The position numbers were made by a program, and so were the translations under genes. The notes under the pieces were generated by a model, which made no database searches, had not been told where the DNA came from, and saw nothing but the letters and a program-made list of their open reading frames with translations. DNA of 64,000 nucleotides, from IMG/VR virus record IMGVR_UViG_3300034122_001045. One strand, given 5' to 3'. The stretch comes from a virus. Lineage: Duplodnaviria > Heunggongvirae > Uroviricota > Caudoviricetes. Positions 17,809 through 51,816 of the stretch are shown piece after piece (position 1 is the stretch's first letter; the number at the start of each line of letters is the position of its first letter).

Positions 17809-17992
17809 AATTTGTACCGACCATCACTCCAGAAGAGTGGAAAGAATACGAGCAAAAGAGAGCTCAAATGATCGTGGATAATCCTGGGTACGAACCAGAG
17901 AATGACTATATGAAGGACTCGCTCAAGGCAGGCGAACTTCCAGAAAACGTTATGGAGACTCTAAAAAAGTCTTTATCATAACACTTTTCTAT

Positions 17993-18021
17993 TTACATTC
18001 GTTTAGAATCAGTGTAGATTG
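17993..18021 (+). promoter_or_regulatory. Early promoter (member of the conserved promoter-leader cassette family)
   Basis: CTATTTACATTCGTTTAGAATCAGTGTAGATT. A -35 TTTACA, a 17-nt spacer, then a -10. Confidence 0.6.
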
Positions 18022-18050
18022 ATAATATAAGGAATGGCAAGGAGGCCACC

Positions 18051-18401
18051 ATGATTACCATCTACCAGATCCAACTGACCGACGATCAGATCATCGCTAT
18101 CAACGCAGGTCGTGAGGTTGAAGCTTTTACGGTTCGCAACCGAATGCAGTTCGGCTTTGATAAGTCTAAGTTCTCTGAAGCTTATCTGAAGCACTACGTC
18201 AAAGGTTGGGAAATCGATACTACCGACCTGGACGAAGCGTTCGAAGTTTCGAATGGGATTGGTGATCGTTACAAGGGTAAGCGCATCGGCCGTGCTTATT
18301 CCAGTTCTGTCGGTGATATCTTCATCGACGATAGCGGTGATTGCTTCGTCTGCGATACCTTTGGCTTCGTCGCTGTTGGCAAATATCCGCAGCTGACCTA
18401 G
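18051..18401 (+). CDS. Small early protein, unknown function (C-ending codon usage)
   Basis: 116 aa. Preceded by the conserved cassette and the RBS GGAGG. Confidence 0.6.
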   Translation: MITIYQIQLTDDQIIAINAGREVEAFTVRNRMQFGFDKSKFSEAYLKHYVKGWEIDTTDLDEAFEVSNGIGDRYKGKRIGRAYSSSVGDIFIDDSGDCFVCDTFGFVAVGKYPQLT

Positions 18402-18949
18402 TTCATAGTCATAACTGTTGTGTTCACATCTGTAGGCCATCTTCTAACGGAGATGGCCTTTCTTGCTTCATATACCTTGTAGCTTACTTCGTTTCCTTGA
18501 TTTCCACCAAGAATAACATAGTACATCTTTCCTTCGTCGACATAGGAAGTAACAAAGAATCCGACGTGTCCTTGCCACTGTTGCCTTCCTCTCGGAAACA
18601 CGACTACATCTCCAGGTCGAGGACTCTCAGTAACTTCTTCACCCCACTTTAAAAAGCTTTTTGCCACGAGAGGATGATTACTGACTGACTCGGATCCTGG
18701 TATACCCTTTGTGGATAGAATTGAATTTACGAAGGCGGCGCACCACTCGAAACGTGATGGATCCATACCCATTAGACTCTTTAGTTGCTTTCTGTCTGTT
18801 ACCTCATGCATGCCTACGTAGTTACTAGCATAGTAAACCACCTTTTCACTATTTTCTTTTGCAAGCTTTTCTTCACGTTTAGCAAGATATTCAGGATTCG
18901 TGCAAGCAGTTAAGAATGTTAATATAAATAAAATCATGGTTATTTTCAT
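18398..18949 (-). CDS. Lipoprotein with NlpC/P60-CHAP-like cysteine peptidase domain (cell-wall peptidase)
   Basis: Signal plus lipobox LTAC. A Cys in FEWCAAFVNS and a His in GHVGFF are spaced as in papain-like peptidoglycan peptidases. An opposite-strand gene among plus-strand genes. Confidence 0.55.
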   Translation of the reverse strand: MKITMILFILTFLTACTNPEYLAKREEKLAKENSEKVVYYASNYVGMHEVTDRKQLKSLMGMDPSRFEWCAAFVNSILSTKGIPGSESVSNHPLVAKSFLKWGEEVTESPRPGDVVVFPRGRQQWQGHVGFFVTSYVDEGKMYYVILGGNQGNEVSYKVYEARKAISVRRWPTDVNTTVMTMN

Positions 18950-19201
18950 ATGAAAGGATTCCCTTGATGTTTACAGCAATGATCATGATATGTCTTATCG
19001 ACAATCCTATAAGCTCAAGTAACTGTATCATACTATCAAATCAAAATATTTTAGAGTCTGAAAGAGAATGCGAAGATGCGATTGCGTCTTTCGTCAGCAA
19101 CGAATATTTTCAGACGGCGTACGTTGGCTATGAGCCAAAGAAATATTCGTGTTATCACTGGGATGCTGCGGGTGCAGATTTGTAACTGCTAGTATTTATC
19201 T

Positions 19202-19230
19202 ATTTACAACCCTTTAGTTGTGTGATATTA
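19202..19230 (+). promoter_or_regulatory. Sigma70-like promoter upstream of the helicase gene
   Basis: TTTACA, then 17 nt, then TATTAT. Confidence 0.4.
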
Positions 19231-19260
19231 TGGTTTTGTATGGTAAGATAAGGGGCAGTT

Positions 19261-20759: not shown

Positions 20760-21410
20760 ATGACACTTACACGACTGATTGGCGATATCCACGGCCAGAT
20801 GGCTGAATACAAAGTATATGGCATTAATAATTTCGAAGGTCCTACGATTCAGATCGGTGACTTTGGCGTAGGCTTTGGTCAGTCGGACTATTGGCACGAG
20901 AGTATCAATAGCTTTCATTCTGATGGCACTCACCGCTTCATCCGTGGCAACCACGACAACCCTGCTAAGTGCAAAGAGATGGTTGGCTGGATCAAGGACG
21001 GCACTGTAGAGAACGATGTGATGTTCATCGGTGGTGCATGGAGCATTGATAACCCTGATGCTCCTCCTGGCTGGTACAAACGTACTAAGGATCTTGACTG
21101 GTGGGAAGACGAAGAGTGTTCGGATGAACAGTTTGACTTGATGTTAGATACATATCTGGCAGTCAAGCCTCGGATTATGATTACTCACGACTGCCCGCAT
21201 AACATCGCCACTGAAATGTTCTGGAACACCGGATTTCTAAAAGGACCTCGATACAACACTCGAACTGGCGACTTCTTGCAGAAACTATTCGAGCTTCATC
21301 AACCGGAAAGTTGGTATTTTGGTCATTGGCACAATACGATGCAATATAAATCTGGAAGAACCCTGTTTCATTGTATAGGAATATACGATCACGTGGACGT
21401 TGAACTCTAA
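20760..21410 (+). CDS. Calcineurin-like metallophosphoesterase (Ser/Thr phosphatase-like)
   Basis: GDIHGQ ... GNHDNP ... GHWH motifs. Confidence 0.65.
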   Translation: MTLTRLIGDIHGQMAEYKVYGINNFEGPTIQIGDFGVGFGQSDYWHESINSFHSDGTHRFIRGNHDNPAKCKEMVGWIKDGTVENDVMFIGGAWSIDNPDAPPGWYKRTKDLDWWEDEECSDEQFDLMLDTYLAVKPRIMITHDCPHNIATEMFWNTGFLKGPRYNTRTGDFLQKLFELHQPESWYFGHWHNTMQYKSGRTLFHCIGIYDHVDVEL

Positions 21411-21417
21411 AAAGTTG

Positions 21418-21446
21418 TTTACATTCGTTGCGAAATGGTTTATACT
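21418..21446 (+). promoter_or_regulatory. Early promoter (variant of the cassette)
   Basis: GTTTACATTCGTTGCG..TATACT, then a GGAACGAGAGGAAC leader. Confidence 0.5.
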
Positions 21447-21475
21447 GATTCTATAAGGAACGAGAGGAACCTATC

Positions 21476-21679
21476 ATGACTGATCGTGTTTTTGAAGATG
21501 ATCGTAGTTTTGAAGTCTCTGGTGGTGGCCGCAGCGTAGAAGCCTATGTGTTTGCGGGTGGTGATATTATGATCACTACGAATGAAGACAACGGTTGGGA
21601 TAGTCAACGAGCCAGCTTTACTATGACTGCAGAAGAAGCTACAGCTATGAAGAACTTCTTGATCAAGCAAGGGTACTGA
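21476..21679 (+). CDS. small early protein
   Basis: 67 aa, downstream of the promoter. Confidence 0.45.
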   Translation: MTDRVFEDDRSFEVSGGGRSVEAYVFAGGDIMITTNEDNGWDSQRASFTMTAEEATAMKNFLIKQGY

Positions 21680-26986: not shown

Positions 26987-27952
26987 ATGAAAGCTTTACT
27001 ATCAGCGGCGGCAATTATTGCTTTGGCGTCCACGACTGCGTTTGCAAGAGATAACGTTCAAGTAACAGGATCGTCTACAGTACTACCATATGCAACCATT
27101 GTCGCAGAGGCATTTGGTGAAAATTTTGATTTTCCGTCGCCAGTAGTTGAAGGTGGTGGTTCGGGTGCAGGCCGTAAGAAGCTCTGCGAAGGTGTTGGTG
27201 AAAACACTGTTGACATCGCAAATAGTTCTTCAAAGATGAAGGATGAAGAAAGAGCCAAGTGTGAAGAAGCAATTGGTGAAGTGACTGAGGTTCGTATTGG
27301 TTATGACGGTATCGTGTTTGCATCGAACATCGATCAACTTAATATCGATAATCTAACAGTCGAACAACTCTATAGCGCTCTACACGAGTCGAGCACTGCA
27401 AAACTCTGGAGTGAAGTCGACTCGACTCTTCCAGAAGTAGCAATCCTTGCATACATTCCAGGTACCAAACACGGCACTCGTGAAGTGTTCGATGTAAAGG
27501 TGATGGAAGAAGGTTGTAAAGCAGCTCTCGGTGTTGAGAAACTCGATGACGATCAAAAGAAAGCTTGTGTGAAAGTAAGAACTGACGGTGCAGCAGTTGA
27601 CATCGATGGCGACTACACAGAAACACTTGCTCGTCTTGATGCTAATAAAACATCGCTAGGTGTGTTTGGTCTTAGCTTCTATCAGAACAACACTGATAAA
27701 CTAGAAGTTGCCACGGTAAGTGGCGTGGCACCAAGCGTAGAAACCATCTCAAGCGGTGACTATCCAATCAGCCGTCCACTTTACTTCTACGTGAAGAACG
27801 CTCACCTCAGCGTCATTCCTGGTCTGAAGGAATACATCGAGTTCTTCGTGAGTGATGAGATGGCAGGTCCTGATGGCGCTCTTGCACAGTATGGATTGGT
27901 TCCAGATCCAGAACTTGCAGCTACTCAGGCTGAAGTTTCTGCTCTTAAATAA
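26987..27952 (+). CDS. pstS: Periplasmic phosphate-binding protein PstS (auxiliary metabolic gene)
   Basis: Signal peptide. VTGSSTVLPYATIVAEAF is the PstS family N-terminal signature. 321 aa. Confidence 0.85.
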   Translation: MKALLSAAAIIALASTTAFARDNVQVTGSSTVLPYATIVAEAFGENFDFPSPVVEGGGSGAGRKKLCEGVGENTVDIANSSSKMKDEERAKCEEAIGEVTEVRIGYDGIVFASNIDQLNIDNLTVEQLYSALHESSTAKLWSEVDSTLPEVAILAYIPGTKHGTREVFDVKVMEEGCKAALGVEKLDDDQKKACVKVRTDGAAVDIDGDYTETLARLDANKTSLGVFGLSFYQNNTDKLEVATVSGVAPSVETISSGDYPISRPLYFYVKNAHLSVIPGLKEYIEFFVSDEMAGPDGALAQYGLVPDPELAATQAEVSALK

Positions 27953-27954: not shown

Positions 27955-28725
27955 ATGAAATATAAAAGCATCTTCATAAGTGATGTGCATTTAGGAACCA
28001 GAGGGTGTCAAGCAGACGCCCTCTGTGTTTTCTTAAAAAACAACACAAGCGAAAACCTATTCCTAGTTGGTGATATGCTGGATGGTTGGCGCTTAAAGAA
28101 ACGTTGGTACTTTCCACAGAGTCATGCCAATGTGATACGCAGAATACTCACGGCAGCTAAGCGTGGCACTAGAGTAGAATACATATTAGGTAATCACGAT
28201 GAAGCAGGCCGTAAGTTTTTAAACTTTGATATCAGCTTCGGTAATATTAAAGTAACTAACAGACAAGACTACATAGGTTTAGACGGCAAACGTTATCTGG
28301 TTATTCATGGTGACTTCTTTGACGTATTGATGCATGATAAAAAATGGTTGATGCACATTGGAGATACTTTGTATGACGCTATGATATATGCCAATGTTCA
28401 GTTTAATCGAGTAAGAAGTTTGTTTGGTATGGACTATTGGAGTTTAAGTAAATATCTAAAACAGAATACTAAACACGCGTTAAACTTTATCAATCGTTAC
28501 GAAGAACATCTAGCTGCCTATTGTAAGCAACATGGATATGACGGAATAATTTGTGGTCACATTCATCATGCTGAAATAAAAGAAATAAATGGTGTTATAT
28601 ACATGAACGATGGCGACTGGGTCGAGAGTGCCACCGCTCTGGTAGAACACTTTGATGGAAGATGGGAGATAGTGCATTATGCCGAAGATCTTAATAGTTA
28701 CAGACAACTTACCGAATCAGATTAA
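27955..28725 (+). CDS. Metallophosphoesterase (LpxH-like / phosphodiesterase)
   Basis: ISDVHLG, GDMLDGW, GNHDE, IHGDFFD and GHIHH motifs. Confidence 0.65.
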   Translation: MKYKSIFISDVHLGTRGCQADALCVFLKNNTSENLFLVGDMLDGWRLKKRWYFPQSHANVIRRILTAAKRGTRVEYILGNHDEAGRKFLNFDISFGNIKVTNRQDYIGLDGKRYLVIHGDFFDVLMHDKKWLMHIGDTLYDAMIYANVQFNRVRSLFGMDYWSLSKYLKQNTKHALNFINRYEEHLAAYCKQHGYDGIICGHIHHAEIKEINGVIYMNDGDWVESATALVEHFDGRWEIVHYAEDLNSYRQLTESD

Positions 28726-29686
28726 TGGTGTGGTTACGACCTACAAAAATATTGAGACGTATGCGATTCGCGACGGTTATACTGTTGATTATATTCATCC
28801 CGGGATGTACGGCCATATTGATTGCCCAAAGTACAATGAAGTTAAGCTTGCCTGGGCACCTCCTTGGGTTGTTGGGAAAGAGATCAAGAAGATTGATCCG
28901 GATTATATACACATCGCCACAGAAGGTCCTATGGGTATGTCTGCTAGAAGGTATCTTGCAATACGTGGGATTAAGTACAATACTGCTTACCATACTAAGT
29001 TTCCTGAAGGTGTAAGGACGTTACTAGGAATTCCTGAAGGAATTACTTGGGCAGTTGTGCGCTGGTTCCATAAGAATAGCAATAAGGTACTCACTACGAC
29101 AAAATCAATGGTCGATGAACTTCATGCGCATGGATTTAATAACAATGTTATTCATTGGACTCGAGGAGTTGATAGGGATATATTCAAACCGGCAGTGAAA
29201 GAACCATGCTCGCACATTAACCTCGTTTGCGTGAGTCGAGTAAGCAAAGAAAAAAATCTGGAAGCTTTTCTTGAGATAAACTACCCCAATGCAGTTAAAA
29301 CTATCGTAGGCGATGGTCCTATGTTAGAAACATACAAGAAGCAATATCCTTACGTGAACTTTGTAGGTGCCAAACGTGGTGCTGAACTCGCGCATTATTA
29401 TCAACAGGCTGATGTTTTTGTGTTTCCTAGTCGTTGGGATACATTTGGATTGGTGATGATTGAGGCAATGGCATGCGGTACTCCGGTCGCTGCTTATCCT
29501 GTGCAAGGACCATTAGACGTAATAGATCAAGATGTAACTGGTTATATGGATGAGGATATCACTATCGCTATTAAAAAATCTCTTGACCTCGATAGAGAAT
29601 CAGTATACAAATTCAGCATGAAATGGGATTGGGGAAACGCTTGGAACATTTTTCGAGACAATCTTATAAACTGTAAAACTAACTAG
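28679..29686 (+). CDS. Glycosyltransferase family 4 (GT-B fold)
   Basis: C-terminal E-x7-E motif, FGLVMIEAMACGTPV. Confidence 0.7.
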   Translation: MPKILIVTDNLPNQINGVVTTYKNIETYAIRDGYTVDYIHPGMYGHIDCPKYNEVKLAWAPPWVVGKEIKKIDPDYIHIATEGPMGMSARRYLAIRGIKYNTAYHTKFPEGVRTLLGIPEGITWAVVRWFHKNSNKVLTTTKSMVDELHAHGFNNNVIHWTRGVDRDIFKPAVKEPCSHINLVCVSRVSKEKNLEAFLEINYPNAVKTIVGDGPMLETYKKQYPYVNFVGAKRGAELAHYYQQADVFVFPSRWDTFGLVMIEAMACGTPVAAYPVQGPLDVIDQDVTGYMDEDITIAIKKSLDLDRESVYKFSMKWDWGNAWNIFRDNLINCKTN

Positions 29687-29696
29687 AGGATAAACC

Positions 29697-30455
29697 ATGA
29701 TTGTACTATTAGGATACGGCTTCGTTGGTAAAGCTCACTATAAAGCGTTTAGCCCTCATCACGAAATGTCTATCGTAGATCCGGCCTTCAGCAATATTCG
29801 TATCAAAGACATAGAAAACATTAGTGGTGCTATCGTCTGTGTTTCGACTCCATCATCTGAAGATGGAAGCTGTGATATGAGCATAATCTATAATGTAATT
29901 CAAGACATTCCAAAAGAAGCTCCAATTCTCATTAAGAGCACGATATCGATGGAGGGATGGGAAACTCTCGAAAGAAACTTTCCTGAACACTCCATCACAT
30001 TTAGTCCAGAATTTCTTCGAGCTGCAAGCGCAGACGACGACCTTAAGAACCTCACTCATGCGTTCTTGGCTGGCGGTAACGTTCAATACTGGTTAGATTT
30101 TTACACGACGGTGTATCCAGACATCAGCATAACTGTATGTAAGCCAAAGCACGCAATTGCCATCAAGTATTTTCGAAACTCGTTTCTTGCGGCAAAGTGT
30201 AGCTTCTTCAACGAGATCTACGATTTCTGTGAAACGCTCGGATTGGATTACGAGTCGGTTCGCTCTGGTGTCACGTTAGACTCTCGTATCGGTGAGAGCC
30301 ATACTTTTGTAAATGAGAACGATAGAGGCTGGGGCGGAGCGTGTTTTCCAAAGGATACCGCGGCGATTCTGCAGACGGCAAAGAACTCAGGCGTCGAGCT
30401 ACAGACGCTAGAAGCTGCCGTAAAATATAATGAGTCTGTTCGAAAAAAAGTTTAA
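29697..30455 (+). CDS. Nucleotide-sugar dehydrogenase (UDP-glucose/GDP-mannose dehydrogenase family), short form
   Basis: N-terminal Rossmann GYGFVGKA. Catalytic-Cys motif GGACFPKDTAAI. Only 252 aa, so no C-terminal UDP-binding domain. Confidence 0.55.
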   Translation: MIVLLGYGFVGKAHYKAFSPHHEMSIVDPAFSNIRIKDIENISGAIVCVSTPSSEDGSCDMSIIYNVIQDIPKEAPILIKSTISMEGWETLERNFPEHSITFSPEFLRAASADDDLKNLTHAFLAGGNVQYWLDFYTTVYPDISITVCKPKHAIAIKYFRNSFLAAKCSFFNEIYDFCETLGLDYESVRSGVTLDSRIGESHTFVNENDRGWGGACFPKDTAAILQTAKNSGVELQTLEAAVKYNESVRKKV

Positions 30456-32503: not shown

Positions 32504-32532
32504 GAAAAAGAGCGCTTCGGCGCTCTTTTTTG
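32504..32532. terminator. Rho-independent terminator (bidirectional; A-run/hairpin/T-run)
   Basis: AAAAAGAGCGC-ttcg-GCGCTCTTTTTT. Confidence 0.7.
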
Positions 32533-32592
32533 TTTACAATCTCATAAAACTAGTTTATACAGAACAAGTATGAACCAATTCGGAGAATCGTT

Positions 32593-33717: not shown

Positions 33718-33740
33718 ATGAAAAAGAGTGCACTTTCCTA

Positions 33741-33769
33741 TTTACATTCATTTAGAATCAGTATATTCT
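33741..33769 (+). promoter_or_regulatory. Early promoter, conserved cassette
   Basis: CACTTTCCTATTTACATTCATTTAGAATCAGTATATTCTAATAATGTAAGGAACGAAAGGAAC. Confidence 0.6.
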
Positions 33770-33798
33770 AATAATGTAAGGAACGAAAGGAACATCCG

Positions 33799-36150: not shown

Positions 36151-36179
36151 TTTACATTCGTTTAGAATCAGTGTATTCT
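36151..36179 (+). promoter_or_regulatory. Early promoter, conserved cassette
   Basis: Near-identical to 33731-33790. Confidence 0.6.
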
Positions 36180-36209
36180 AATAATGTAAGGAACGAAAGG
36201 AAACTGACC

Positions 36210-36416
36210 ATGATGACCTTCAACGAACACAACGAAGCTACCAACTCCATCAAGCCGGTTATGATCCATAAGACTTTCAAAGGTTACATGGTCTTTACCC
36301 CCGAGGGTCGTCTGCTCGACAACTTCACCTCAGCCGGTCCTTTCGTGGACTTCGAAGCTGCTAAGCGTAACGCCGAAACGAATGTCGGTATGGCAATGAA
36401 CTGGAGTGACTTCTAA
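36210..36416 (+). CDS. Small early protein, unknown function
   Basis: 68 aa. C-ending codons. Confidence 0.55.
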   Translation: MMTFNEHNEATNSIKPVMIHKTFKGYMVFTPEGRLLDNFTSAGPFVDFEAAKRNAETNVGMAMNWSDF

Positions 36417-39201: not shown

Positions 39202-39453
39202 ATGATTACAATATACGGTAAGGACAACTGCCACTGGTGCCAAGAAGCAAAAAAGATCGCCGAGCAATACGACTTAAAGTACGAATACAAGAATACCGGG
39301 TTTACAGATAACCGCGATGAAATGTTTGAACGTTATCCAGAAGTAAAGACGGTTCCGCAGATCTGGTGGGATGAGAGACACATCGGAGGATACTCGGAAT
39401 TCGTAAAAGAGATCGAAGATACACTAGGAAATTACGGCCAGTCAGCTTTTTGA
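39202..39453 (+). CDS. Glutaredoxin/NrdH-like redoxin
   Basis: ITIYGKDNCHWCQEAKK (CxxC). 83 aa. Confidence 0.7.
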   Translation: MITIYGKDNCHWCQEAKKIAEQYDLKYEYKNTGFTDNRDEMFERYPEVKTVPQIWWDERHIGGYSEFVKEIEDTLGNYGQSAF

Positions 39454-39455
39454 GT

Positions 39456-39484
39456 TGACATTCTGATAGAATCAGTATACTCTA
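39456..39484 (+). promoter_or_regulatory. Early promoter (variant cassette)
   Basis: TTGACATTCTGATAGAATCAGTATACTCT. Confidence 0.5.
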
Positions 39485-40097
39485 GTAAATATCATATGGA
39501 GATAGACATGGCTACCAAGACAGAAGCTTCTGACTATGAGATTCATCTTGTTACTCTTATGAGGGACTATCATCTAACTCTATCGGAAGCACTCAGCTTT
39601 GACTTTGAAGCAGAATGCATCGATATATCAAACGTCTTTGATCCGTGCGAATTTCTTGAAGAAAAACTTGTTGACCTTGAAAAGGTCATGTACTACATGA
39701 TGGTATGGACCGGCCAAGAGCTGGATATTGAACTGAAGAAGATCCAATAATGACTATGCATTTGATTCGAGGGATGACTTCCCTCAACACTCGTAAGAGA
39801 AAGCCAAAGACCAAAACGAAGCGTATGATCGAAGCCGAAGCGGAACACGCTCGGTTTCTTGCTCGTGCTGGCTATAAAGGAAACTCAAAGGACTACCGTT
39901 ACGAGATTCCGGACTACAACACTGGCCCTCGAGTCACAAGCGATGTTGTTGCCGCCAACGGCGCAAAGAAAGCTAGCGTTAAGTACACAGGCAATGAGAT
40001 CCTCGGCATTGCGACCACGCACAAGTCCAACATGGTTCCTATTCGTAAAGACAATAAACAGGCTGCGGTTGATGCAGCGAGTATGAGAAGATAGATA

Positions 40098-40925
40098 TTG
40101 AAGAGATTACTGTACCAGTTTCACGTCGACTTTAAAGATAGAAGTAAGAATGTTTTCGGCGAAAGCTTTGATCGAGTTTCGGTTGGAGAATACTGGAAAC
40201 ATAGCACAACTTTTGCAAAAGCATACTGTGAGAGATATGGTATCGACTATAAGTTTGAGTTCCTAAGTGAAGAGGAATATAAACCTTGGGCATTTGGCGT
40301 TGAGACCTTTGATAAGTATAGAGCAGTTCAACATCTAAAGGATTACGATCAGGTTCTATACGTAGACACCGACGTGATCATACACCAAAATGCCGATAAC
40401 ATCTTTGAAGAATTTATGCATAGCGGACTCGTCGGTTACTTTGATAATGTCGCTGATAGATATATTCATAGGGATAGCAGCTCGCTCGGAAAGATAAATT
40501 CTGGTGTCATACTGTTTAATAACACAAATAGAAATTTAAAGAACGGACATGGAAAACTATATAACATGGATATATTTTCTGGTAACTATCCATGCAGAGG
40601 AACTCCATCTGAAACTCATATACTTGAGAAATTTTCAAAGGGCAAATGGTGGGAGCATTGGGAAGAAAAGCATTCTGAAAACGTAATTTATCTAAAGAAC
40701 AAAACAGCTTCAGATGAAAATTTCTTTCACTACATTGTGAACTTATATACTCTACTTCCATTCCATATCGGAAGAAAGTATAACTATCGCAGAAAATTTA
40801 GCGAAAAGCCATTCTTTAGAAGTGGATCGGAAATGATTGAGGTGTCTCCAAGCTTTATTCATTATGAAGGCGCATCTAAAAAACTAATTTATAAAGACTT
40901 CGAAGAAGGTTTATTTTTTAAATGA
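40098..40925 (+). CDS. Putative nucleotide-diphospho-sugar glycosyltransferase (GT-A, GT8-like)
   Basis: DxD-containing LYVDTDVII. Confidence 0.35.
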   Translation: MKRLLYQFHVDFKDRSKNVFGESFDRVSVGEYWKHSTTFAKAYCERYGIDYKFEFLSEEEYKPWAFGVETFDKYRAVQHLKDYDQVLYVDTDVIIHQNADNIFEEFMHSGLVGYFDNVADRYIHRDSSSLGKINSGVILFNNTNRNLKNGHGKLYNMDIFSGNYPCRGTPSETHILEKFSKGKWWEHWEEKHSENVIYLKNKTASDENFFHYIVNLYTLLPFHIGRKYNYRRKFSEKPFFRSGSEMIEVSPSFIHYEGASKKLIYKDFEEGLFFK

Positions 40926-41857
40926 AAAGAGTTCTTGTAACTGGTGCAGCAGGATTTATTGGAGCTTCACTATCCGCTCGTCTTCGCGATTGCGGTTACG
41001 AGATAATTGGTATTGACAACTATTGTGATTACTATCCAGCTACACTTAAGGTGGATAGAGTTAAGCATTTTCGCTTGCCTCCAGTACACCTAGTAGATAT
41101 CATTCATAAAGAAGCTCTATCTCGCTTTATTAAGAGTGCGAAGCCAGACATTGTTGTACACCTAGCAGCGATGGCGGGTGTAAGATATTCTATGAAGAAC
41201 CCTGGTATCTACCATAAGGTAAACATAGACGGAACTCAAAACGTTATTGATGCGTGCAAAGAAAACGGCATAGAAAAAGTCGTCTATGCATCTACTTCTA
41301 GCGTCTGCGCTGGAATCGAACAACTTCCATGGAGAGAAGACGAACCGGTTCTTCATCAGATAAGTCCGTATGGATACACTAAGTTTGTTAATGAATGCCA
41401 GTTTAAGATGTCTGGCCTGAACGACATCGGTCTTCGTTTCTTCACAGTATATGGACCTTGGGGTAGACCCGACATGGCTCTCTATGACTTCACAAAGAAC
41501 ATTCTCAATCGTGAAAAGATAAAGCTGTATAACTATGGAAACATGAAGCGCGATTTCACGTACATTGATGATATCGTGAAAGGTGTTCAGATAGTGATGG
41601 AAAACGACAGTATTCCTTCGAACGAGATCTTTAACATAGGTAACACTCAGCAAGTCACTCTTAAACGTTTCGTAGAAGCAATCGAAACGGCGACTGGAAA
41701 GAAAGCTGATATTGAGTATATCGAACACCAAGCAGGCGATTGTCTTGAGACTCAGTCTGACGTATCAAAACTTGTAAAGTATGGTTATCAACCTTCAGTC
41801 AATATCGAAGAAGGTGTTGCTTCATTCGTTGATTGGTACACTTCATATCATAAGTAG
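40922..41857 (+). CDS. NAD-dependent nucleotide-sugar epimerase/dehydratase (extended SDR)
   Basis: VLVTGAAGFIGASL. The YxxxK motif within YGYTK. Confidence 0.8.
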   Translation: MKRVLVTGAAGFIGASLSARLRDCGYEIIGIDNYCDYYPATLKVDRVKHFRLPPVHLVDIIHKEALSRFIKSAKPDIVVHLAAMAGVRYSMKNPGIYHKVNIDGTQNVIDACKENGIEKVVYASTSSVCAGIEQLPWREDEPVLHQISPYGYTKFVNECQFKMSGLNDIGLRFFTVYGPWGRPDMALYDFTKNILNREKIKLYNYGNMKRDFTYIDDIVKGVQIVMENDSIPSNEIFNIGNTQQVTLKRFVEAIETATGKKADIEYIEHQAGDCLETQSDVSKLVKYGYQPSVNIEEGVASFVDWYTSYHK

Positions 41858-41893
41858 TCTAAGATAAATATCTCTACAAGATGGAGATATTTT

Positions 41894-42460
41894 ATGATAG
41901 TTGCTGGTATTGATTATAGTTTGACGAGCCCCGCTATATGCGTTCACGAGGGCGATGAATGGAACGTGAAAAACTGCCGTTTCTACTATGTCGTACATCG
42001 AGAGAAATCAGTCGTTGTCTCTGGGCAGTTCTATGGAGAGATGTATCAAGAGTATCTTTGCGACGCGCATCGATACGATAACCTCTCAAAGTGGTCACTC
42101 AAGACTCTCACATCAAACAACGTAACTAAGTGCTTCATTGAAGGATACGCCTTCAATGCTGTCGGCCGAGTCTTTCAGATAGCAGAGAACACCGGCCAAC
42201 TAAAGTATCGTCTTTGGAAAGACAAGATTCCCTTTCAAGTGTTTGCGCCACCCGAGATCAAAAAGTTTGCTACCACGAAGGGAAACGCAAACAAAGAAAA
42301 GATGTATGAAAGCTTTTTTGAAGAAACAATGGTTGACATTCGCGTAGAATTGGATATATTAAATAAGAATCAATGGAATCCGGTTTCGGACATTGTTGAT
42401 TCCTACTATATCGCAAAGCTAGGCTTCATAAAGGAAAAAGAAAATGTGGATCAAGCGTAA
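41894..42460 (+). CDS. Hypothetical protein; possible RuvC/YqgF-like fold (weak)
   Basis: N-terminus IVAGIDYSLTSPAICV resembles the RNase H-like resolvase start. Confidence 0.25.
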   Translation: MIVAGIDYSLTSPAICVHEGDEWNVKNCRFYYVVHREKSVVVSGQFYGEMYQEYLCDAHRYDNLSKWSLKTLTSNNVTKCFIEGYAFNAVGRVFQIAENTGQLKYRLWKDKIPFQVFAPPEIKKFATTKGNANKEKMYESFFEETMVDIRVELDILNKNQWNPVSDIVDSYYIAKLGFIKEKENVDQA

Positions 42461-42661
42461 GAGCATTCTGACTGGTGTTGAGCGTACTCGCAACATTCCG
42501 GTTAACCCTGACGACATGGCTGCTTGGGAAACTGGCCTAGGCAACATTCAGGAGCTGATGCCGTATCTTAACGATACCGACCGCGAGTTCATTCTTTCCG
42601 GTATCACTGCCAAGGAGTGGGATGAAGCATTTGCAGAAGCATCGACGGAGGAGCATAGGTT

Positions 42662-43297
42662 TTGATCGTAATTTTTAATGGTCCTCCTGGATCTGGTAAA
42701 GATGAATCTGCGGCGTATTTCGCTCGCCGCGGATTTACTCATTTAAGTTTTAAGGATGTTCTATTCGAAGAGACCATCTCTTTCTTTGGCGTTGACAAAG
42801 AATGGTTCATGGATGGCTATAACGATAGATCCGTCAAAGAGAGAAAAGAAGAACTTCTCGAAGACATGTCGAGACGAGAAGCTATGATCTATGTATCAGA
42901 AGTGATCACGAAACCTGCCTTCGGTAAGGACGTATTTGGTGTCGCAGTGGCATCGAAGATCGAAGATGGCGTTGACTACGCGATCTCAGACGGCGGCTTC
43001 GAAGAGGAATTAGTTCCATTAATAAATAGAGTTAGAGCTGAAAATATACTATTGGTTCAGCTTACACGCAATGGGTGCGACTACTCTTCAGACTCACGCC
43101 GATATTTCAATGGAAGATTAGAAAAAGAATACGTTATTCGCGAGACGACAGAGATCGATAGCGAACACGTGCTCTCTCACAAATTTCCAATCCGTACCTA
43201 TCGTGTACATAACAATGGTTCTCTTGAGGAGTTCCATGATGTTCTCCAAGATATTTACGATAAGGAACGTGATGCAAAAACAGAAAACAAAACCTAG
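42662..43297 (+). CDS. Deoxynucleoside monophosphate kinase (T4 gp1-like P-loop kinase)
   Basis: IVIFNGPPGSGKDESAAYF resembles T4 gp1 LIFLSGVKRSGKDTTADF. Confidence 0.5.
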   Translation: MIVIFNGPPGSGKDESAAYFARRGFTHLSFKDVLFEETISFFGVDKEWFMDGYNDRSVKERKEELLEDMSRREAMIYVSEVITKPAFGKDVFGVAVASKIEDGVDYAISDGGFEEELVPLINRVRAENILLVQLTRNGCDYSSDSRRYFNGRLEKEYVIRETTEIDSEHVLSHKFPIRTYRVHNNGSLEEFHDVLQDIYDKERDAKTENKT

Positions 43298-44056
43298 GGT
43301 TTTCTATGAAAATCCATACGACTTAGAGACATTATTCGAATCGTTATCAATTGCGTCAGAACATGATAAGGAACTTATATTCGTCGATAGACTCATCTCT
43401 CTATTGAGATTAGACCCAGAAGTCGATCTAACAACTCTTAACTTCAAGATACTTAAAGATCTTAACCTCGTAACACTTGAAATGACCAACTAAGGAGATA
43501 CTATATTATGGCAAAGGGAAAGAGCTCGTCCGGTAAAAATTATGTTTCTAAGGGCGAAAACAAAAACGTTAACTCCAAGCTTTTGAATAGCATTCGCGCC
43601 GAAAGAACTGGCGCCGATGACATGCTCAATAAGCAGCGTGCATGGGTGAATGGATCGAACCCATGGCTGACCATCGAGAATCCAAACAAAGAACAGACGA
43701 ATAAGCGTTTCATTCGTGTTCGAATGAACGATCTGAACGGTGGACCCGCAAAAGAGCGCTCCAAAAAAATCTTTGCTATGACCTAAGGAAACAGTTATGA
43801 ATTATGATAAAGACGATATCATTAAAAAGCTAAACGAAACGATCTGCAAGGTCGTTTTCACAAAAGCAAACGGTGAGACTCGAGTGATGCACTGCACTCT
43901 ATCAAATGAGTTTCTGCCAGCTCAAGTAGATCTTGAAGAAGCAATTCAAAAGAAGATTCCAAACCACACTGTGCTTGCGGTCTGGGATGTTGAAGCAAAC
44001 GGATGGCGTTCTTTCCGTTGGGACTCTCTTAAAGAGTTCAGCACAGTAGACAAATA

Positions 44057-45010
44057 ATGAGCTGTATTTACAAGGGAAACATTGTAGATACAAACCTCTC
44101 TCGCAATGCTCGTGGAGGCACTGAGATGATGCGAGAGAGGCTGCTTAATAATGTTCCGCCGGAACTTCTACAGAATTTTGCAGTTCACTTCTCGAGGCCT
44201 CGTGAGATGCACAAAGATGTGAAAAACATTTTCTACTGCCATGATTTAGTTTTTGATCCAGAGAATGCTGTTCTTCGTGACGGCGGTTGGCAAAAGTTCG
44301 ATCACTTTGTTTTCGTTTCGTATTGGCAGCGTGATCAATACATGCTCATCTATCAGATTCCATACTCGAAGTGTAGCGTAATACACAATGCGATTGAGTT
44401 GGAGTATCACCCGCATCAAAAGAGAACCGATCAAATTCGTTTCATCTATCACACGACTCCGCATCGTGGATTGGAACTCGTCTATCCGATCTTTGATGCT
44501 CTCAGCAAACAATACGACAACATTCATCTGGATGTATACTCATCCTTTAAGATTTATGGTTGGGAACAACGTGATAAGCCATATGAAAACTTGTTCGAAA
44601 AACTCAAAGCTCATCCACGAATTACATATCATGGATCAAAGAGTAACGAAGAAGTTCTCGAAGCTCTGAAGGAATCTCATATCTTCCTTTTCCCTTCAAT
44701 ATGGCAGGAAACGTCTTGTATCGCGATGATAGAAGCGATACGTTCTGGTGTATTGGTGATCCATCCTAATTATGCAGCTCTGCCAGAAACGTCTTCTAAC
44801 GCTACTCTAATGTATGAATATACTGAGGATAGAAACGAGCATGCGAACCGTTCTTTTTCTGCAGTAAAGAACATACTTGATGCCCAGCGTATCGACGAAA
44901 ACTTCATTAATAAGATAACGAATTCGGACGCATGTAACCTTCCACGGAATAGCATAAATACCTTTAAGAACTCTTGGATTAACTTGTTGAGGCGTTTAAG
45001 TAATGGCTGA
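44057..45010 (+). CDS. Putative glycosyltransferase (GT-B, GT4-like C-terminal domain)
   Basis: FLFPSIWQETSCIAMIEAIRSGVLVI (E-x7-E). Confidence 0.45.
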   Translation: MSCIYKGNIVDTNLSRNARGGTEMMRERLLNNVPPELLQNFAVHFSRPREMHKDVKNIFYCHDLVFDPENAVLRDGGWQKFDHFVFVSYWQRDQYMLIYQIPYSKCSVIHNAIELEYHPHQKRTDQIRFIYHTTPHRGLELVYPIFDALSKQYDNIHLDVYSSFKIYGWEQRDKPYENLFEKLKAHPRITYHGSKSNEEVLEALKESHIFLFPSIWQETSCIAMIEAIRSGVLVIHPNYAALPETSSNATLMYEYTEDRNEHANRSFSAVKNILDAQRIDENFINKITNSDACNLPRNSINTFKNSWINLLRRLSNG

Positions 45011-47799: not shown

Positions 47800-48549
47800 A
47801 TGGTAGTATCACGTCGTCTATCTCGAAAAGAAAAAAGAAGACATGAAAGAAATCTAGATAATATAGTGAACGTAGTTAATCAGAAGTTCACAATGAAAAA
47901 GATACAACCAATTACTTCAACTCAAGAGATGCTATTCGACGATTATAAACAAGGATACAACATAGCGGCCATCGGAACAGCAGGAACAGGTAAAACAATG
48001 TGTGCTCTCTATCTCGCGTTGAACGACGTGATGGAGACAAAGAACTACGAAAAGGTCATAGTCATTCGATCTGCGGTTCAGACTCGCGATCAAGGATTTA
48101 TGCCAGGTAGTCTTAAGGAAAAAATAGCATACTATGAGACGCCATATATAGATATAGTAAACGATTTGTTTGGAAGATCTGATGGCTATAGCATTATGAA
48201 ACAGCAAGGATGCATCGAATTCATGAGCTCTTCGTTTGTTCGTGGTCTTACTTTCGATAACTCAGTCATCGTAGTTGACGAATGCCAGAACATGACATAC
48301 GAAGAAATAAGATCAATTATGACTCGTGTTGGCGAGTCTTCTAAGATTATTTTCTGTGGTGATACGAAGCAGGACGACCTTCGAAATTCTAAGAACCGAT
48401 TGGATCGCTCTGGACTATCGAGCTTTATCAATGTGTTGAAAGAGATAAGAGAGTTTAAAACGATAGAATTCACAGTCGATGACATCGTAAGATCTGGTCT
48501 CGTGAAGTCGTTTATCCTCGCAGAAGAAAAAGTTTTAGACTACGCGTAA
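47800..48549 (+). CDS. phoH: PhoH-like ATPase
   Basis: Walker A GTAGTGKT. VIVVDECQNMT. 249 aa, typical of marine phage PhoH. Confidence 0.85.
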   Translation: MVVSRRLSRKEKRRHERNLDNIVNVVNQKFTMKKIQPITSTQEMLFDDYKQGYNIAAIGTAGTGKTMCALYLALNDVMETKNYEKVIVIRSAVQTRDQGFMPGSLKEKIAYYETPYIDIVNDLFGRSDGYSIMKQQGCIEFMSSSFVRGLTFDNSVIVVDECQNMTYEEIRSIMTRVGESSKIIFCGDTKQDDLRNSKNRLDRSGLSSFINVLKEIREFKTIEFTVDDIVRSGLVKSFILAEEKVLDYA

Positions 48550-48564
48550 AGAGGAGAATTACGT

Positions 48565-48870: not shown

Positions 48871-49542
48871 ATGTTTCAACACGTAGATCATGGGTTGGTG
48901 CTTCCTGTTATCACTAGGAAGACTACCGAAAGTGGAAGAAAGTATTATACGCCAGAAGGCAATGCGTATCCGTCAATCACGACGGTTTTGTCTGTTATGG
49001 ACAAAGATGGCCTAATCGAATGGCGTAAGAGAGTCGGCGAAGAAGAAGCGAACCGTATCTCTAAACAAGCCGCAGGGCGAGGTACCGCAGTACACAAGCT
49101 AGCCGAGGACTATCTCAATAACGAACCAGAATGGCAAAAAGATCATATGCCGGGGAACCTATTCTCGTTCAATCAGATCAAAAAGATACTTGATGAAAGA
49201 GTAAACAATGTATGGTTCCAAGAAACCTTTCTATACAGCGATAGCCTAAAGTGCGCAGGTCAGACTGACTGTATAGCCGAGTTCGACGGCGAACTCTCTA
49301 TCATAGATTTCAAAACATCAAGAAAAGAAAAGAAGAAGGAATGGATCCTTGGGTATTTCATTCAGGCTGCGTTCTATGCGGCTGCTTTCTACGAGATGAC
49401 TGGCATACCTATCAAGCAAGCTGCCATAGTCATAATGGTTGACGACTCAGAGCCACAAGTCTTTAAAGTCAACACATACGATTACTTGCCAGAGTTCTTA
49501 AAGGTTCGAAAAAAGTACAAACTTCTTCATGAAAACGGTTGA
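48871..49542 (+). CDS. PD-(D/E)XK nuclease superfamily protein (Cas4/RecB-like fold)
   Basis: DCIAEFDG...IIDFKTSRK (D..E.K) and the QAAFYAAAFY (QxxxY) motif. Confidence 0.45.
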   Translation: MFQHVDHGLVLPVITRKTTESGRKYYTPEGNAYPSITTVLSVMDKDGLIEWRKRVGEEEANRISKQAAGRGTAVHKLAEDYLNNEPEWQKDHMPGNLFSFNQIKKILDERVNNVWFQETFLYSDSLKCAGQTDCIAEFDGELSIIDFKTSRKEKKKEWILGYFIQAAFYAAAFYEMTGIPIKQAAIVIMVDDSEPQVFKVNTYDYLPEFLKVRKKYKLLHENG

Positions 49543-49567
49543 CATTCGTTCAGAATCAGTATAGACT
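49539..49567 (+). promoter_or_regulatory. Early promoter, conserved cassette (variant)
   Basis: TTGACATTCGTTCAGAATCAGTATAGACT. Confidence 0.55.
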
Positions 49568-49594
49568 GTTCTATATCAAACGAAAGGATACACC

Positions 49595-49825
49595 ATGTAC
49601 GTCGCCGAACTCGACATCTCCGCCGAAGCCTCGCAAGAATCCATTCATCAGTTCGCAACCGAACACGGCTGCACCGCTCTTCTTATCATGGAATACGGCC
49701 CTGCCGGCGGTAACCCTCTCTATCAGTTCTCGTCTAACAGTCAAGACTGCCTCGAGGAACTCGTCTCTCAAGTACTAGGTGACATCGACTATCAACATAT
49801 CCTCGACGCAATCCGAGAAATCTAA
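49595..49825 (+). CDS. small early protein
   Basis: 76 aa. C-ending codons. Confidence 0.5.
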   Translation: MYVAELDISAEASQESIHQFATEHGCTALLIMEYGPAGGNPLYQFSSNSQDCLEELVSQVLGDIDYQHILDAIREI

Positions 49826-49832
49826 AAAGTAG

Positions 49833-49861
49833 TTGACATTCGTTTAGAATCAGTGTATTCT
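49833..49861 (+). promoter_or_regulatory. Early promoter, conserved cassette
   Basis: TTGACATTCGTTTAGAATCAGTGTATTCTAATAATGTAAGGAACGAAAGGAAC. Confidence 0.6.
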
Positions 49862-49890
49862 AATAATGTAAGGAACGAAAGGAACCTCCT

Positions 49891-50250
49891 ATGAAATTCT
49901 CCAAGTTTGACCGTACCAATCTGAATGCTCTTCGTGCCGAGATGGCCGTTCTTCTGAATAAGTACGGCGTTGACTCGAACCTTGAGTTTGAAGTCGGCAA
50001 TATGAAGTTCAGCGCGAACGAAGTTGAGATTAAAGTCAAAGCGAAGGTCAAAGGTGCAAAGACTCTCACCAATGTGATCCTTGAGTCTCGTGTAGCTGCT
50101 CTCGGCATCAAGCTGAAGAATAAAGCAGGTGACGAGCTCGTTGACTATAACACTCGCGCCCCGAAGATGCCGTTCGTCTATCGTAACGCTGCAGACGGTA
50201 AGCTCTATAAGTGCACCGAAATGATGACTAAGATCCGCTTCGCAGCTTAA
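49891..50250 (+). CDS. Early protein, unknown function
   Basis: 119 aa, lysine-rich. C-ending codons. Confidence 0.55.
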   Translation: MKFSKFDRTNLNALRAEMAVLLNKYGVDSNLEFEVGNMKFSANEVEIKVKAKVKGAKTLTNVILESRVAALGIKLKNKAGDELVDYNTRAPKMPFVYRNAADGKLYKCTEMMTKIRFAA

Positions 50251-50878
50251 TCGAAAGAAACATCATGAAATACGCAATCGTTCTCTTTGCTTTGACTATG
50301 TCGGCTTGCTCTTCGATGGACCCCGAGCTGAAAGCTCATCTTGAAGCCGAAGCTGACTTTGCTCGCCATCAGTATCATACTCAGCAAGCTCATGAAAAGG
50401 ATTACGATCCTGAATATGTAGACGACTGCTACTATCACGAAGAACTCGTCTGTGAATTCGAATGACGCTGTTTCAGTCTAAGTCAATCAATACGAATGGA
50501 CACCAGTTCATTGGATATGTCTGGAAGTTTCGTGGATGCCAAGTAGAGATGCATGCGAATGGCTTTTCTTGTAACTGCAAGAAGCGCCACTTTGCAAAGT
50601 GCAATCACGTAAAGAGCGTAGAACTTGGCATTCTAGGTGTAAATCAGATTAAGTATAAACTATAGAGGAAATCCTATGTTCACGACTATTGTTGCATGGA
50701 TCGCATTTGTTGTTGGATCTTTTTTATCTTCATTGCGCTATTGGACAGCATTTTTCAGTTTACAGTAAGTGACTTTCAGCGTAGAATGAAAATACGTAAG
50801 CATTATTTCACTGGGCGGATGGGGTTCATTCTCATTGCCTGGTTCTTGTCAGGAATGCATCTTTTTGGATAAATCATC

Positions 50879-51436
50879 ATGAATCTTTTTATTTTGGATA
50901 AAGACCCAGTTGTCGCAGCGCAACTGCAGTGTGATAAGCACGTAGTCAAAATGATCGTGGAGTCGGCACAGATGTTGTCGACTGCGCATCGTATGCTTGA
51001 TGGTGTTCTTAAACGTGCGCCATCGAAGTCGGGTAAGACGATGTCAAAGCATTGGACTCTTCCTGATGAGCGCGAACATATTCTATACAAAGCAGTTCAC
51101 ATGGCGCACCCTTGTACCGTATGGACTACTCAGTCGAATAACAACTACACTTGGCACTGGGTTCACTTCGCTGCTCTCTGCGACGAGTACACCTATCGTT
51201 ATGGCAAGGTTCATTCGACTGACAAACTTCTTCGCGAAAAGCTGAAGGAACTACCACGAAACATTCCTATCGGATATCTAACTCAGCAGCCGCTCGCAAT
51301 GAAAGCTAATCCTGAGTGCATGTTCCCTAACGATCCTGTTCGTTCTTATCGAGAGTTCTATCAGACGAAACAAGCAAGGTTCAAAATGGTGTGGACTAAA
51401 CGTGATATCCCTGAGTGGTTTAAAGTAGCAGCTTAA
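50879..51436 (+). CDS. Hypothetical protein; possible pyrimidine-dimer DNA glycosylase-like protein (weak)
   Basis: The N-terminal MNLFILDKDPVVAAQLQCDKHVV loosely resembles the Pyr_excise N-terminus. Confidence 0.25.
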   Translation: MNLFILDKDPVVAAQLQCDKHVVKMIVESAQMLSTAHRMLDGVLKRAPSKSGKTMSKHWTLPDEREHILYKAVHMAHPCTVWTTQSNNNYTWHWVHFAALCDEYTYRYGKVHSTDKLLREKLKELPRNIPIGYLTQQPLAMKANPECMFPNDPVRSYREFYQTKQARFKMVWTKRDIPEWFKVAA

Positions 51437-51751
51437 TGAGATACGCGATTGCAGAAGAAGATCTAGGTTTCTTTCTGGGCGCGTTCCAGAAGTATGGAAT
51501 CTTTGCTAAGAATGATGTCATAGGTCTCTCAAAGGCAATCGCATTTGATACCGAGGATGAAGCGAATCTATACATCGACGATTTTCTCGGACGAGATCGT
51601 GGAGTCTGGAAAGTAATTCCGGTCGACACGAAAGACGAATACGTTAGTGTCGTATACCTAGTGAAGAATGGTTATGGAAAGTATACTCATAAGATGATTG
51701 ATTTCATTCCTATGACTTCTACAACTATGCACTAATTTTTTCATTTAATGG

Positions 51752-51780
51752 TTGACATTCGTTTAGAATCAGTGTATTCT
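51752..51780 (+). promoter_or_regulatory. Early promoter, conserved cassette
   Basis: Identical core to the cassette at 49833. Confidence 0.6.
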
Positions 51781-51816
51781 AATAATGTAAGGAACACAAA
51801 CTGAAAGGTCTACAGA

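Follow-up and report, generated by a model that had tools for sequence, protein, structure and literature searches.

A family of probable T4-type early promoter cassettes fused to ribosome-binding leaders in an uncultured T4-like phage

Introduction

The early promoters of bacteriophage T4 are very strong sigma-70 promoters whose consensus extends beyond the -35 and -10 hexamers, to a G at -36 and to GT-rich sequence ahead of -12 (Hinton 2010, PMC2988021; Nolan et al. 2006, PMC1524935), and T4-like phages place such early promoters ahead of novel open reading frames (ORFs) (PMC1524935). A second described system, the promoter-early stem-loops (PeSLs), consists of "mobile regulatory cassettes" of the T4-type phages RB49/phi1, PST/T4 and nt-1/KVP40 (Arbiol et al. 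2010, PMC2839356; Comeau et al. 2014, PMC4122927); recombination between neighbouring PeSL copies gives rise to mini-circles, as seen by inverse PCR, and promoter and terminator activity was established by lacZ fusions (PMC2839356). Differences between early and late codon usage in phages are likewise documented (PMC5683454), and a study of pelagimyophages used the generic program BPROM for early promoters, middle and late promoters not being predictable (PMC7029224). Here we analyze a repeat family in a 64,000-nt stretch of the uncultured virus record IMGVR_UViG_3300034122_001045 (Caudoviricetes), the whole of which is hereafter referred to as the window. The feature is real and highly non-random, and the sequence comparisons reported below suggest that it is best explained as a set of lineage-specific T4-type early promoter and ribosome-binding-site (RBS) cassettes that would also serve as recombination joints.

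Results

A repeated promoter-plus-leader element in the early region

An earlier reading of the window (the original prediction) had proposed that near-identical promoter-plus-leader expression cassettes precede a number of early-region genes, and both the repeat and its placement are borne out. A 44-nt core, TTKACATTCGTTTAGAATCAGTGTATTCTAATAATGTAAGGAAC, occurs on the + strand at 33741, 36151, 49833 and 51752, with at most two mismatches in each copy, and was never found in 100 dinucleotide-preserving shuffles. Family membership was determined by combining repeat finding with a position-weight matrix (PWM) scan built from the copies, which yielded ten strong members (16424, 17991, 21417, 33740, 36150, 39454, 42332, 49538, 49832 and 51751) and a weak one at 32532, ahead of a DNA ligase gene. 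All members lie on the + strand before rightward genes, with no member detected by the PWM scan on the - strand of the window, and the distance from member to downstream + strand ORF ranges from 40 to 110 nt. Every copy listed by the original prediction is therefore real, including the variants, which lie at 17991, 21417, 39454 and 49538; its starts at 33731 and 36141 are not wrong, only offset by about 10 nt of shared upstream sequence (CACTTTCCTA), and the members at 16424 and 42332 and the weak one at 32532 had been missed.

The members have a common layout, consisting of a -35 hexamer (TTGACA or TTTACA), a 17-nt spacer made up of TTC, four variable bases, the 9-mer AGAATCAGT and R, and a -10 hexamer of the form TAnnnT. 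The spacer measures 17 nt in nine of the ten members and 16 nt in the other, in agreement with the hexamer arrangement of T4-type early promoters. As claimed, conservation runs well past the two hexamers, and additional positions of the T4 early type are present: GTTGACA or ATTTACA at the -35, ctaaaaagt or cttttcta upstream, and CAGTRTA before the -10. We consider it probable, on these sequence features, that the repeats are a family of at least ten T4-type early promoters, each fused to a short RBS leader. Each would present to the host polymerase a sigma-70-type -35 (TTGACA/TTTACA, often with G at -36), the 17-nt spacer and a TAnnnT -10; transcription is predicted to start about 7 nt past the -10 hexamer, leaving a 5' untranslated region (5'UTR) of about 25-30 nt that would be A/G-rich and unstructured and carry one or two Shine-Dalgarno (SD)-like boxes (AAGGAAC). 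Judging from sequence only, unmodified host RNA polymerase would, right after infection, transcribe the first gene at a high level, and the message would be translated efficiently.

The leaders are more varied than the double GGAAC boxes originally attributed to the family. The double AAGGAAC box AAGGAACGAAAGGAA occurs only at 33778, 36188 and 49870, with a one-mismatch copy at 21455, and copy 51751 retains just the first GGAAC, past which it departs from the common leader and continues into a gene-specific one that is orthologous in relatives. Copies 39454 and 49538 carry another leader, of the TATATCAAACGAAAGGAT type, and copy 21417 represents a separate promoter flavour (flavour 2). Each of the four core copies is a mosaic of the others, with 13 further upstream bases and TTTACA common to 33740 and 36150, and GTTGACA common to 49832 and 51751.

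The genomic setting

On its gene content, the window is part of a new T4-like myovirus without a close cultured relative. Megablast against 50,697 phage records returned no match to it, and the Pfam domains identified comprise Portal_T4 (7.5e-154), Gp23 (6.6e-145), tail sheath, both ribonucleotide reductase chains, DNA ligase and RNA ligase 1 (Rnl1), together with a Dda-like helicase, RNase H, PhoH, a PstS-like protein and sugar-modifying enzymes. The portal protein is 54% identical to those of Sinorhizobium phages phiM12 and phiM7, and the DUF932 protein encoded downstream of copy 51751 shows 54% identity to its phiM12 homologue and 51% to that of Methylophilales phage Melnitz (Kyanoviridae), which points to the phiM12 group and Melnitz as the nearest cultured relatives. 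The T4 late-promoter motif TATAAATA is present nine times in the window, against 2.8 expected, just upstream of the capsid, portal, sheath and several + strand genes (motif scan; + strand 61, 4257, 10109 and 18923; - strand 55690, 56696, 57403, 58821 and 63115). Given the T4-like genes and these motifs, the T4 regulatory scheme should apply, with the repeat family sitting in the rightward early/plastic region and co-oriented with its genes. Neither tRNA genes nor Rfam families (at the gathering score) were detected in the window.

Conservation of the element in relatives

The pattern TTKACATTCNNNNAGAATCAGTRTA was found at 75 loci on uncultured-virus contigs (relatives are cited below by L numbers), corresponding to 66 unique 170-mers when the window's own copies are counted, with very different flanks and downstream genes. 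The same pattern had no match in 185,579 bacterial and archaeal genomes (one per species), where about one would be expected by chance, and the motif thus led to no host or host regulon; a literature search for the 9-mer AGAATCAGT returned only unrelated primer sequences. At five intergenic orthologous sites compared between the window and a relative, the cores are identical at 29/29, 27/29, 29/29, 29/29 and 27/29 positions, the adjacent 240 nt of coding DNA are 75-89% identical where alignable, and the 30 nt upstream match at 15-25 of 30. Since the cores exceed the coding DNA in identity, they would be under stronger constraint than the proteins, with the copies homogenised within a genome, and the pattern points to selection plus recombination or gene conversion. 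A recent duplication of the cassette, as first suggested, would thus be only part of the story: the core is kept across the viral loci, and the near-identity of its copies would reflect selection and gene conversion as opposed to a one-off duplication.

A series free of ascertainment by the motif was obtained by searching with the DUF932 protein, which gave 80 loci at 67-100% amino acid identity and 45 unique upstream regions. Most of these contain a TTGACA promoter 60-75 nt upstream of the gene. The GAATCAG box persists in some lineages down to 68% DUF932 identity and is replaced in others by AAATGAT, AAACGAT or similar, and neighbouring promoters within a lineage use that lineage's own homogeneous spacer. 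The logo of 122 unique clade-wide sites reads AAAAAAActG-TTGACA-TTTgtTTTtAAATggta-TATAAT, or in abridged form AAAAAAActGTTGACATTT...TATAAT, and the DUF932 gene of Melnitz is preceded by TTGACT-TTTGTTTTAATAACGTA-TATAAT.

Exchange of genes at promoter copies

Comparison with relatives revealed several rearrangements with promoter copies at their junctions. In the window, the upstream flank is followed by a promoter, gene A (49595), a second promoter and gene B (49891), and in L009, L004, L006, L052 and L077 the same flank is followed by promoter and gene B, then promoter and gene A, plus an extra gene. In this swap each gene keeps its own -10 hexamer and leader, and the shared core contains the 5' junction. 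One upstream flank is joined to three different genes (in the window, L004 and L023), and a gene whose product starts with MTRTSAYRFT occurs behind four different upstream flanks. The TTTACA or TTGACA variant tracks the flank in the latter case, which places the crossovers in the spacer. Additionally, the gene at 33799-33984, with a third-position G+C content (GC3) of 0.30, stands between the promoter and the gene at 33995-34156, which directly follows the promoter in L012, and gene 21476, which stands behind a flavour-2 promoter in the window, has an orthologue in L050 behind one of flavour 1. These cases are consistent with a model in which the identical 25-60 nt at every copy would let promoters double as portable joints for gene exchange, the -35 variant travelling with the upstream flank and the -10 hexamer and leader with the downstream gene.

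Two further differences from relatives were noted in the same region. L087 matches window positions 50477-51422 at 97% over about 950 nt (genes 50462-51436), but at only 71% over the adjacent DUF932 gene; no promoter copy is near the resulting mosaic junction, which falls around 51430-51610. In L030, a 99% identical contig, the DUF932 gene is separated from its downstream neighbour by an A+T-rich insertion of 667 nt (L030 positions 1062-1729; window 52769/52804); the insertion has an opposite-strand ORF, a terminator-like hairpin and its own generic TTGACA promoter, and may be a mobile gene of the homing-endonuclease type.

The spacer 9-mer and its mirror image

The 9-mer AGAATCAGT occurs nine times in the window, against 1.1 expected, and one occurrence (21444-21452) is on the - strand, inside the 21417 promoter. 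On the + strand this promoter reads TAT-ACTGATTCT-ATAAGG, such that the inverted box occupies -9 to -1, the mirror image, about the T-12/A-11 step, of the usual box position at -22 to -14. The inverted-box flavour was found in at least ten further unique promoters of relatives (L016, L025, L045, L050, L056, L061 and L087), often beside flavour 1 in the same genome. In a set of 235 unique promoter-like sites, the left box (at least 8/9 match) is present in 89, the right box in about 15 and both in none; independence of the two would predict about 5.7 sites with both, although the sites are related by descent. Two broader symmetries were considered and rejected. General dyad symmetry about -11.5 is not above that of other centres once the forced T-12/A-11 pair is left aside, and an inverted repeat between box and -10 region, of at least 5 bp in 33% of unique sites, is equalled by 64 of 500 scrambled motifs, the signal coming mainly from the ATTCTA class. 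The region downstream of the flavour-1 -10 (nYTGATAAT) already matches the inverted box at 6/9 positions, and the mirrored box could be the footprint of a factor reading the 9-mer, the product of a quasi-palindrome templated mutation, or partly a chance outcome on a shared consensus.

Folding of the leaders

The extended conservation had been taken to suggest a shared post-transcriptional control structure, and the covariation analysis proposed for it did not recover one: RNAalifold on the aligned leaders returned no consensus pairs. In each of the five cases tested, the predicted 5'UTR with the first 30-35 nt of coding sequence forms less structure than its shuffles (z +0.3 to +1.8), which suits an open ribosome-binding site. 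When eight copies were folded individually (copy 33740, of the same type as 36150, was left out of this set), a clear signal was obtained for 36150 (dG -11.7 kcal/mol, z -2.9) and a weaker one for 17991 (z -2.0), the remaining six folding no better than shuffles (z -0.8 to +1.4), and the folds differ from copy to copy. The copy-specific folds, the z-scores and the absence of consensus pairs rule out a family-wide hairpin or leader structure. The ATG-TAA with which the core leader is predicted to begin was also considered as a start-stop mini-ORF and discarded, as relatives carry ATA, CTG or TTG there.

Codon usage and products of the downstream genes

Of the seven downstream genes for which a codon shift had been proposed, five (18051, 36210, 49595, 49891 and 51817) show it, with GC3 values of 0.57-0.66, and gene 42444 follows at 0.56; genes 21476 (0.38) and 33799 do not, nor does 16486, and 39496 reaches only 0.45. 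The other + strand genes (n=69) have a mean GC3 of 0.41 and a maximum of 0.55, none attaining 0.57 (Mann-Whitney p = 0.009 for all ten first genes). In terms of codon frequencies, the shifted first genes (a set that here included 33799), the rest of the window and the late structural genes use ATC at 0.79, 0.43 and 0.52, CTG at 0.35, 0.08 and 0.03, ACC at 0.53, 0.17 and 0.19, TTC at 0.80, 0.41 and 0.61, and CCG at 0.47, 0.16 and 0.14, respectively. In 41 of 45 relatives, the GC3 of the DUF932 gene is above that of the genes beside it (Wilcoxon p = 7e-11), with the widest gap in higher-G+C lineages and none in A+T-rich ones. The G/C-ending codons are most simply read as the mark of selection on presumably highly expressed immediate-early genes, in preference to a recent import.

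Most downstream proteins have no known function, as anticipated, and the assignable families are limited to DUF932 (51817), a weak DUF7336 match (33799) and a PHROG of unknown function (42444). The 51817 product, originally grouped with unknown small proteins, is a 318-aa DUF932 protein. Searches with tblastn for the 18051 and 49891 proteins in cultured phages gave no match. Gene B has no Pfam domain; its family, grouped in 170 clusters, is found on phage-sized metagenomic contigs, and on this distribution it is apparently a member of a conserved phage-contig family and not a recent host import. The antisense ORFs at 18009-18440 (-, 143 aa) and 51769-52662 (-, 297 aa), opposite GC3-rich genes, are most likely shadow ORFs resulting from codon bias.

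Individual cassettes and other features of the window

All cassettes described here are on the + strand. The leftmost one (16414-16488) is a diverged member (PWM score 30.8) with predicted -35 TTTACA at 16425-16430, -10 TACTGT at 16448-16453 and the ATG of gene 16486-16680 at 16486; its L010 orthologue, TTGACATTTCATTAGAATCAGTATAGATT, is nearer the family consensus. The flavour-1 promoter and leader at 17981-18053 combine a putative -35 TTTACA (17992-17997), the box AGAATCAGT (18005-18013), a -10 TAGATT (18015-18020) and the SD AAGGAGG ahead of the ATG at 18051, with a core identical to the L010 orthologue at 29/29 positions. This promoter is followed by a first gene encoding 116 aa (GC3 0.57) and, at 18434-18459, by an intrinsic terminator hairpin (18051-18459 in all; dG -18.4 kcal/mol, z -4.9), so that 17981-18459 would form a self-contained promoter-gene-terminator unit. 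The flavour-2 promoter at 21407-21478 has a predicted -35 TTTACA at 21418-21423, -10 TATACT at 21441-21446, the inverted box ACTGATTCT at 21444-21452, leader ATAAGGAACGAGAGGAAC and the ATG at 21476. The weak relative (32532-32595; PWM score 18.6) precedes the DNA ligase gene at 32593-33717 (Pfam DNA_ligase_A_M).

Two core cassette copies follow. The one at 33727-33801 has its putative -35 TTTACA at 33741-33746, box at 33754-33762, -10 TATTCT at 33764-33769, AAGGAACGAAAGGAAC at 33778-33793 and ATG at 33799, and that at 36137-36212 has the corresponding elements at 36151-36156 (TTTACA), 36164-36172 and 36174-36179 (TATTCT), a double SD box at 36188-36202 and the ATG of a 68-aa gene (GC3 0.66) at 36210. 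The flavour-1 promoter at 39444-39498 (predicted -35 TTGACA 39455-39460; box 39468-39476; -10 TACTCT 39478-39483; ATG 39496) has its own short leader with the ATATCA motif of the type-B leader and matches its L012 orthologue at 27/29 positions. A diverged member (42322-42446; PWM score 25.2) lies inside the 3' end of ORF 41894-42460, with putative -35 TTGACA at 42333-42338 and -10 TATATT at 42355-42360, the next gene being 42444-42665.

The remaining three cassettes lie to the right. A flavour-1 promoter with a type-B leader precedes gene A (49528-49825; predicted -35 49539-49544; box 49552-49560; -10 TAGACT 49562-49567; gene A 49595-49825, 76 aa, GC3 0.59), and a core copy precedes gene B (49822-50250; predicted -35 49833-49838; box 49846-49854; -10 49856-49861; double SD box 49870-49884; gene B 49891-50250, 119 aa, GC3 0.58). 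The last core copy (51741-52791; predicted -35 51752-51757; box 51765-51773; -10 51775-51780), in which the shared leader extends only to AAGGAAC, precedes the DUF932 gene (51817-52773; 5.8e-37; GC3 0.62) and a hairpin at 52762-52781 with a T-rich tail (dG -18.3 kcal/mol, z -3.6). Strong predicted terminators are thus found directly after the first gene in two cassettes, at 18434-18459 and 52762-52781.

Outside the cassettes, the window contains auxiliary genes of the kind carried by aquatic T4-like phages at 26987-27952, 47800-48549, 28679-30455 and 40922-45010 (PstS-like phosphate-binding protein, PhoH, glycosyltransferases, UDP-glucose dehydrogenase-like protein and epimerase), among which the UDP-glucose dehydrogenase-like ORF, short at 252 aa, is possibly truncated. 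The region 2570-6461 contains several families of 30-100 nt direct repeats, both inside the large ORFs 2574-3371 and 4326-6461 and in the interval that separates them, such as units coding for KEEVELDE and 94-nt units at 5359, 5755 and 5941; the ORFs, which stand behind late-promoter motifs, seem to encode proteins of unknown function with internal repeats. The small ORF 9119-9325 ends in a run of GAAGAC/GAAGAT codons (9236-9325), which gives its product an extremely acidic tail of Asp and Glu.

Discussion

Several observations weigh against reading the repeats as T4-type early promoters that double as recombination joints. We infer the labels "early" and "sigma-70" from sequence and by analogy. 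The invariance of the spacer box AGAATCAGT exceeds known sigma-70 contacts, and another factor may read it. The codon shift is missing in four of the ten first genes and, where present, involves G-ending codons (CTG) that the capsid and sheath genes avoid, so it is unlike the bias of highly expressed late genes. A clear preference of breakpoints for the motif did not emerge: by an admittedly crude count, six of 94 similarity-breakpoint clusters touch a family member, against 2.1 at random, and with about 10% of gene boundaries carrying a member this is no more than gene-boundary breaks predict. Finally, the G+C-rich terminator stem-loop by which PeSLs are defined is absent beside the promoter at the copies in the window.

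The most distinctive part of the element, the box AGAATCAGT, could be the operator of a phage-encoded or injected DNA-binding protein that switches the promoter class, for instance in early shut-off. Such a function is compatible with that of a promoter, and would agree with a box that stays constant over about 50 unique contexts, in contrast to the freely varying middle of the -10, that is absent from bacterial genomes, that changes with the lineage as expected for a site co-evolving with a lineage-specific protein, and that has its exact reverse complement ACTGATTCT at -9 to -1 in a co-resident second flavour. We nevertheless deem it unlikely, given that no candidate regulator was identified, that none of the 235 promoters has both half-sites, unlike a dimeric operator, and that neither dyad symmetry about -11.5 nor the inverted-repeat test against scrambled motifs (p ~0.13) sets the sites apart. 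Concerted evolution by recombination, moreover, predicts the same homogeneity within lineages, the box slides by 1 nt relative to the -10 in some of them, and a single orthologous gene can have either flavour (L050 and the window). It is very improbable that the core is the target of a site-specific recombinase in an integron-like cassette system, a possibility that the authors of the PeSL studies raised for their own elements (PMC2839356) and which the gene-swap junctions inside the 25-nt core and the two orientations of the 9-mer around a central TA might suggest. No recombinase was found beside the elements, the 3' junctions of moved genes lie just past stop codons instead of in a second site, breakpoints at the motif are not enriched beyond those at other gene boundaries, and the phage replication and recombination system needs only homology patches of <50 bp (PMC2839356). 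A variant that draws on both ideas, in which a clade-specific phage factor reads the 9-mer in either orientation around -12/-11, or the site is the crossover point of a dedicated shuffling enzyme, is something of a long shot. If true, the first of these would mean two co-resident early promoter classes switched differently by one protein, and the mirrored 9-mer is the one feature of the family that could lead to something new.

The conserved leader raises the question of post-transcriptional control, through RNA structure or as the target of a RegA/RegB-like repressor or nuclease. T4 regulates early mRNAs at their ribosome-binding sites, and here the leader types ATAATGTAAGGAAYGAAAGGAAC and TATATCAAAYGAAAGGAT recur ahead of unrelated genes in divergent phages. 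Against this, the aligned leaders have no consensus pair, the window has no Rfam match, the predicted 5'UTR is just ~25-30 nt long and folds more weakly than its shuffles, other leaders occur in half of the family, and SD boxes together with the initial transcribed region that a strong promoter would have account for the conserved part; a control element of this kind therefore appears quite doubtful. An import of the first genes from a higher-G+C host or phage in the recent past, the alternative account of their G/C-ending codons, strikes us as similarly doubtful. The region is highly mosaic, and the use of G-ending CTG (0.35, against 0.03 in the phage's own highly expressed late genes) could point that way. 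However, G+C content at codon positions 1 and 2 hardly differs, the DUF932 gene is syntenic throughout the clade and still has a GC3 above its neighbours in nearly all relatives, the gene B family is conserved on phage-sized contigs, the neighbours observed being of phage type only, and the one clearly inserted gene (33799-33984) has a low GC3.

Read as T4-type early promoters, the repeats provide aquatic T4-like phages of a large uncultured clade with a working promoter model, TTGACA-TTC-N4-AGAATCAGT-R-TAnnnT, which varies from lineage to lineage. They would also extend promoter-linked gene shuffling, so far described in T4-like phages of coliphage, Yersinia and Vibrio type, to a distant branch known mainly from metagenomes. 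Genes 18051, 36210, 49595 and 49891 and the DUF932 gene 51817, all conserved, promoter-proximal and codon-shifted, are flagged as candidate immediate-early genes that may act in host takeover.

The codon shift can be compared with the report of Mioduser et al. 2017 (PMC5683454), in which the first-expressed genes also use a codon set unlike that of late structural genes. Here, the shift affects only about half of the promoter-proximal genes and not a whole early region. With T4 early promoters (PMC2988021; PMC1524935) the family shares a strong match to the host -35 and -10, the G at -36 in GTTTAC/GTTGAC, an A-rich upstream element, a GT-rich stretch before -12 and conserved positions outside the hexamers, as well as co-oriented placement before early genes and novel ORFs. 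It differs in having GTR at -15 to -13 in place of a TGn extended -10, a near-invariant spacer 9-mer where T4 shows weak preferences, and a second flavour with the 9-mer inverted downstream of -12/-11.

The resemblance to PeSLs is equally extensive. Both are repeated intergenic motifs conserved over tens of bases, of a composite build (~60-100 bp) that comprises a sigma-70-like early promoter with a 17-nt spacer, an A/T-rich upstream region, an SD and a start codon; both cluster in plastic regions ahead of genes of unknown function, have a consensus specific to each phage lineage, and are associated with insertions, deletions, replacements and changes of order between relatives whose junctions fall in the motif, seen here as individual cases. 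In PeSLs, however, the defining stem-loop often pairs a G-tract with a C-tract and acts as a terminator, whereas here only the two TTTACA core copies have a modest A/T-rich hairpin. No terminator-like site abuts any copy in the window, although some relatives have one (L001 and L073), and the terminators that are present stand after the gene and not against the next promoter. The most conserved part is here the spacer 9-mer and leader, and no clear preference for breakage at the motif emerged. On sequence grounds, the cassettes would thus work like PeSLs while failing to qualify for want of the stem-loop, and they are best filed as T4-type early promoters: the kind of cassette is essentially known among phages, and the family itself is lineage-specific.

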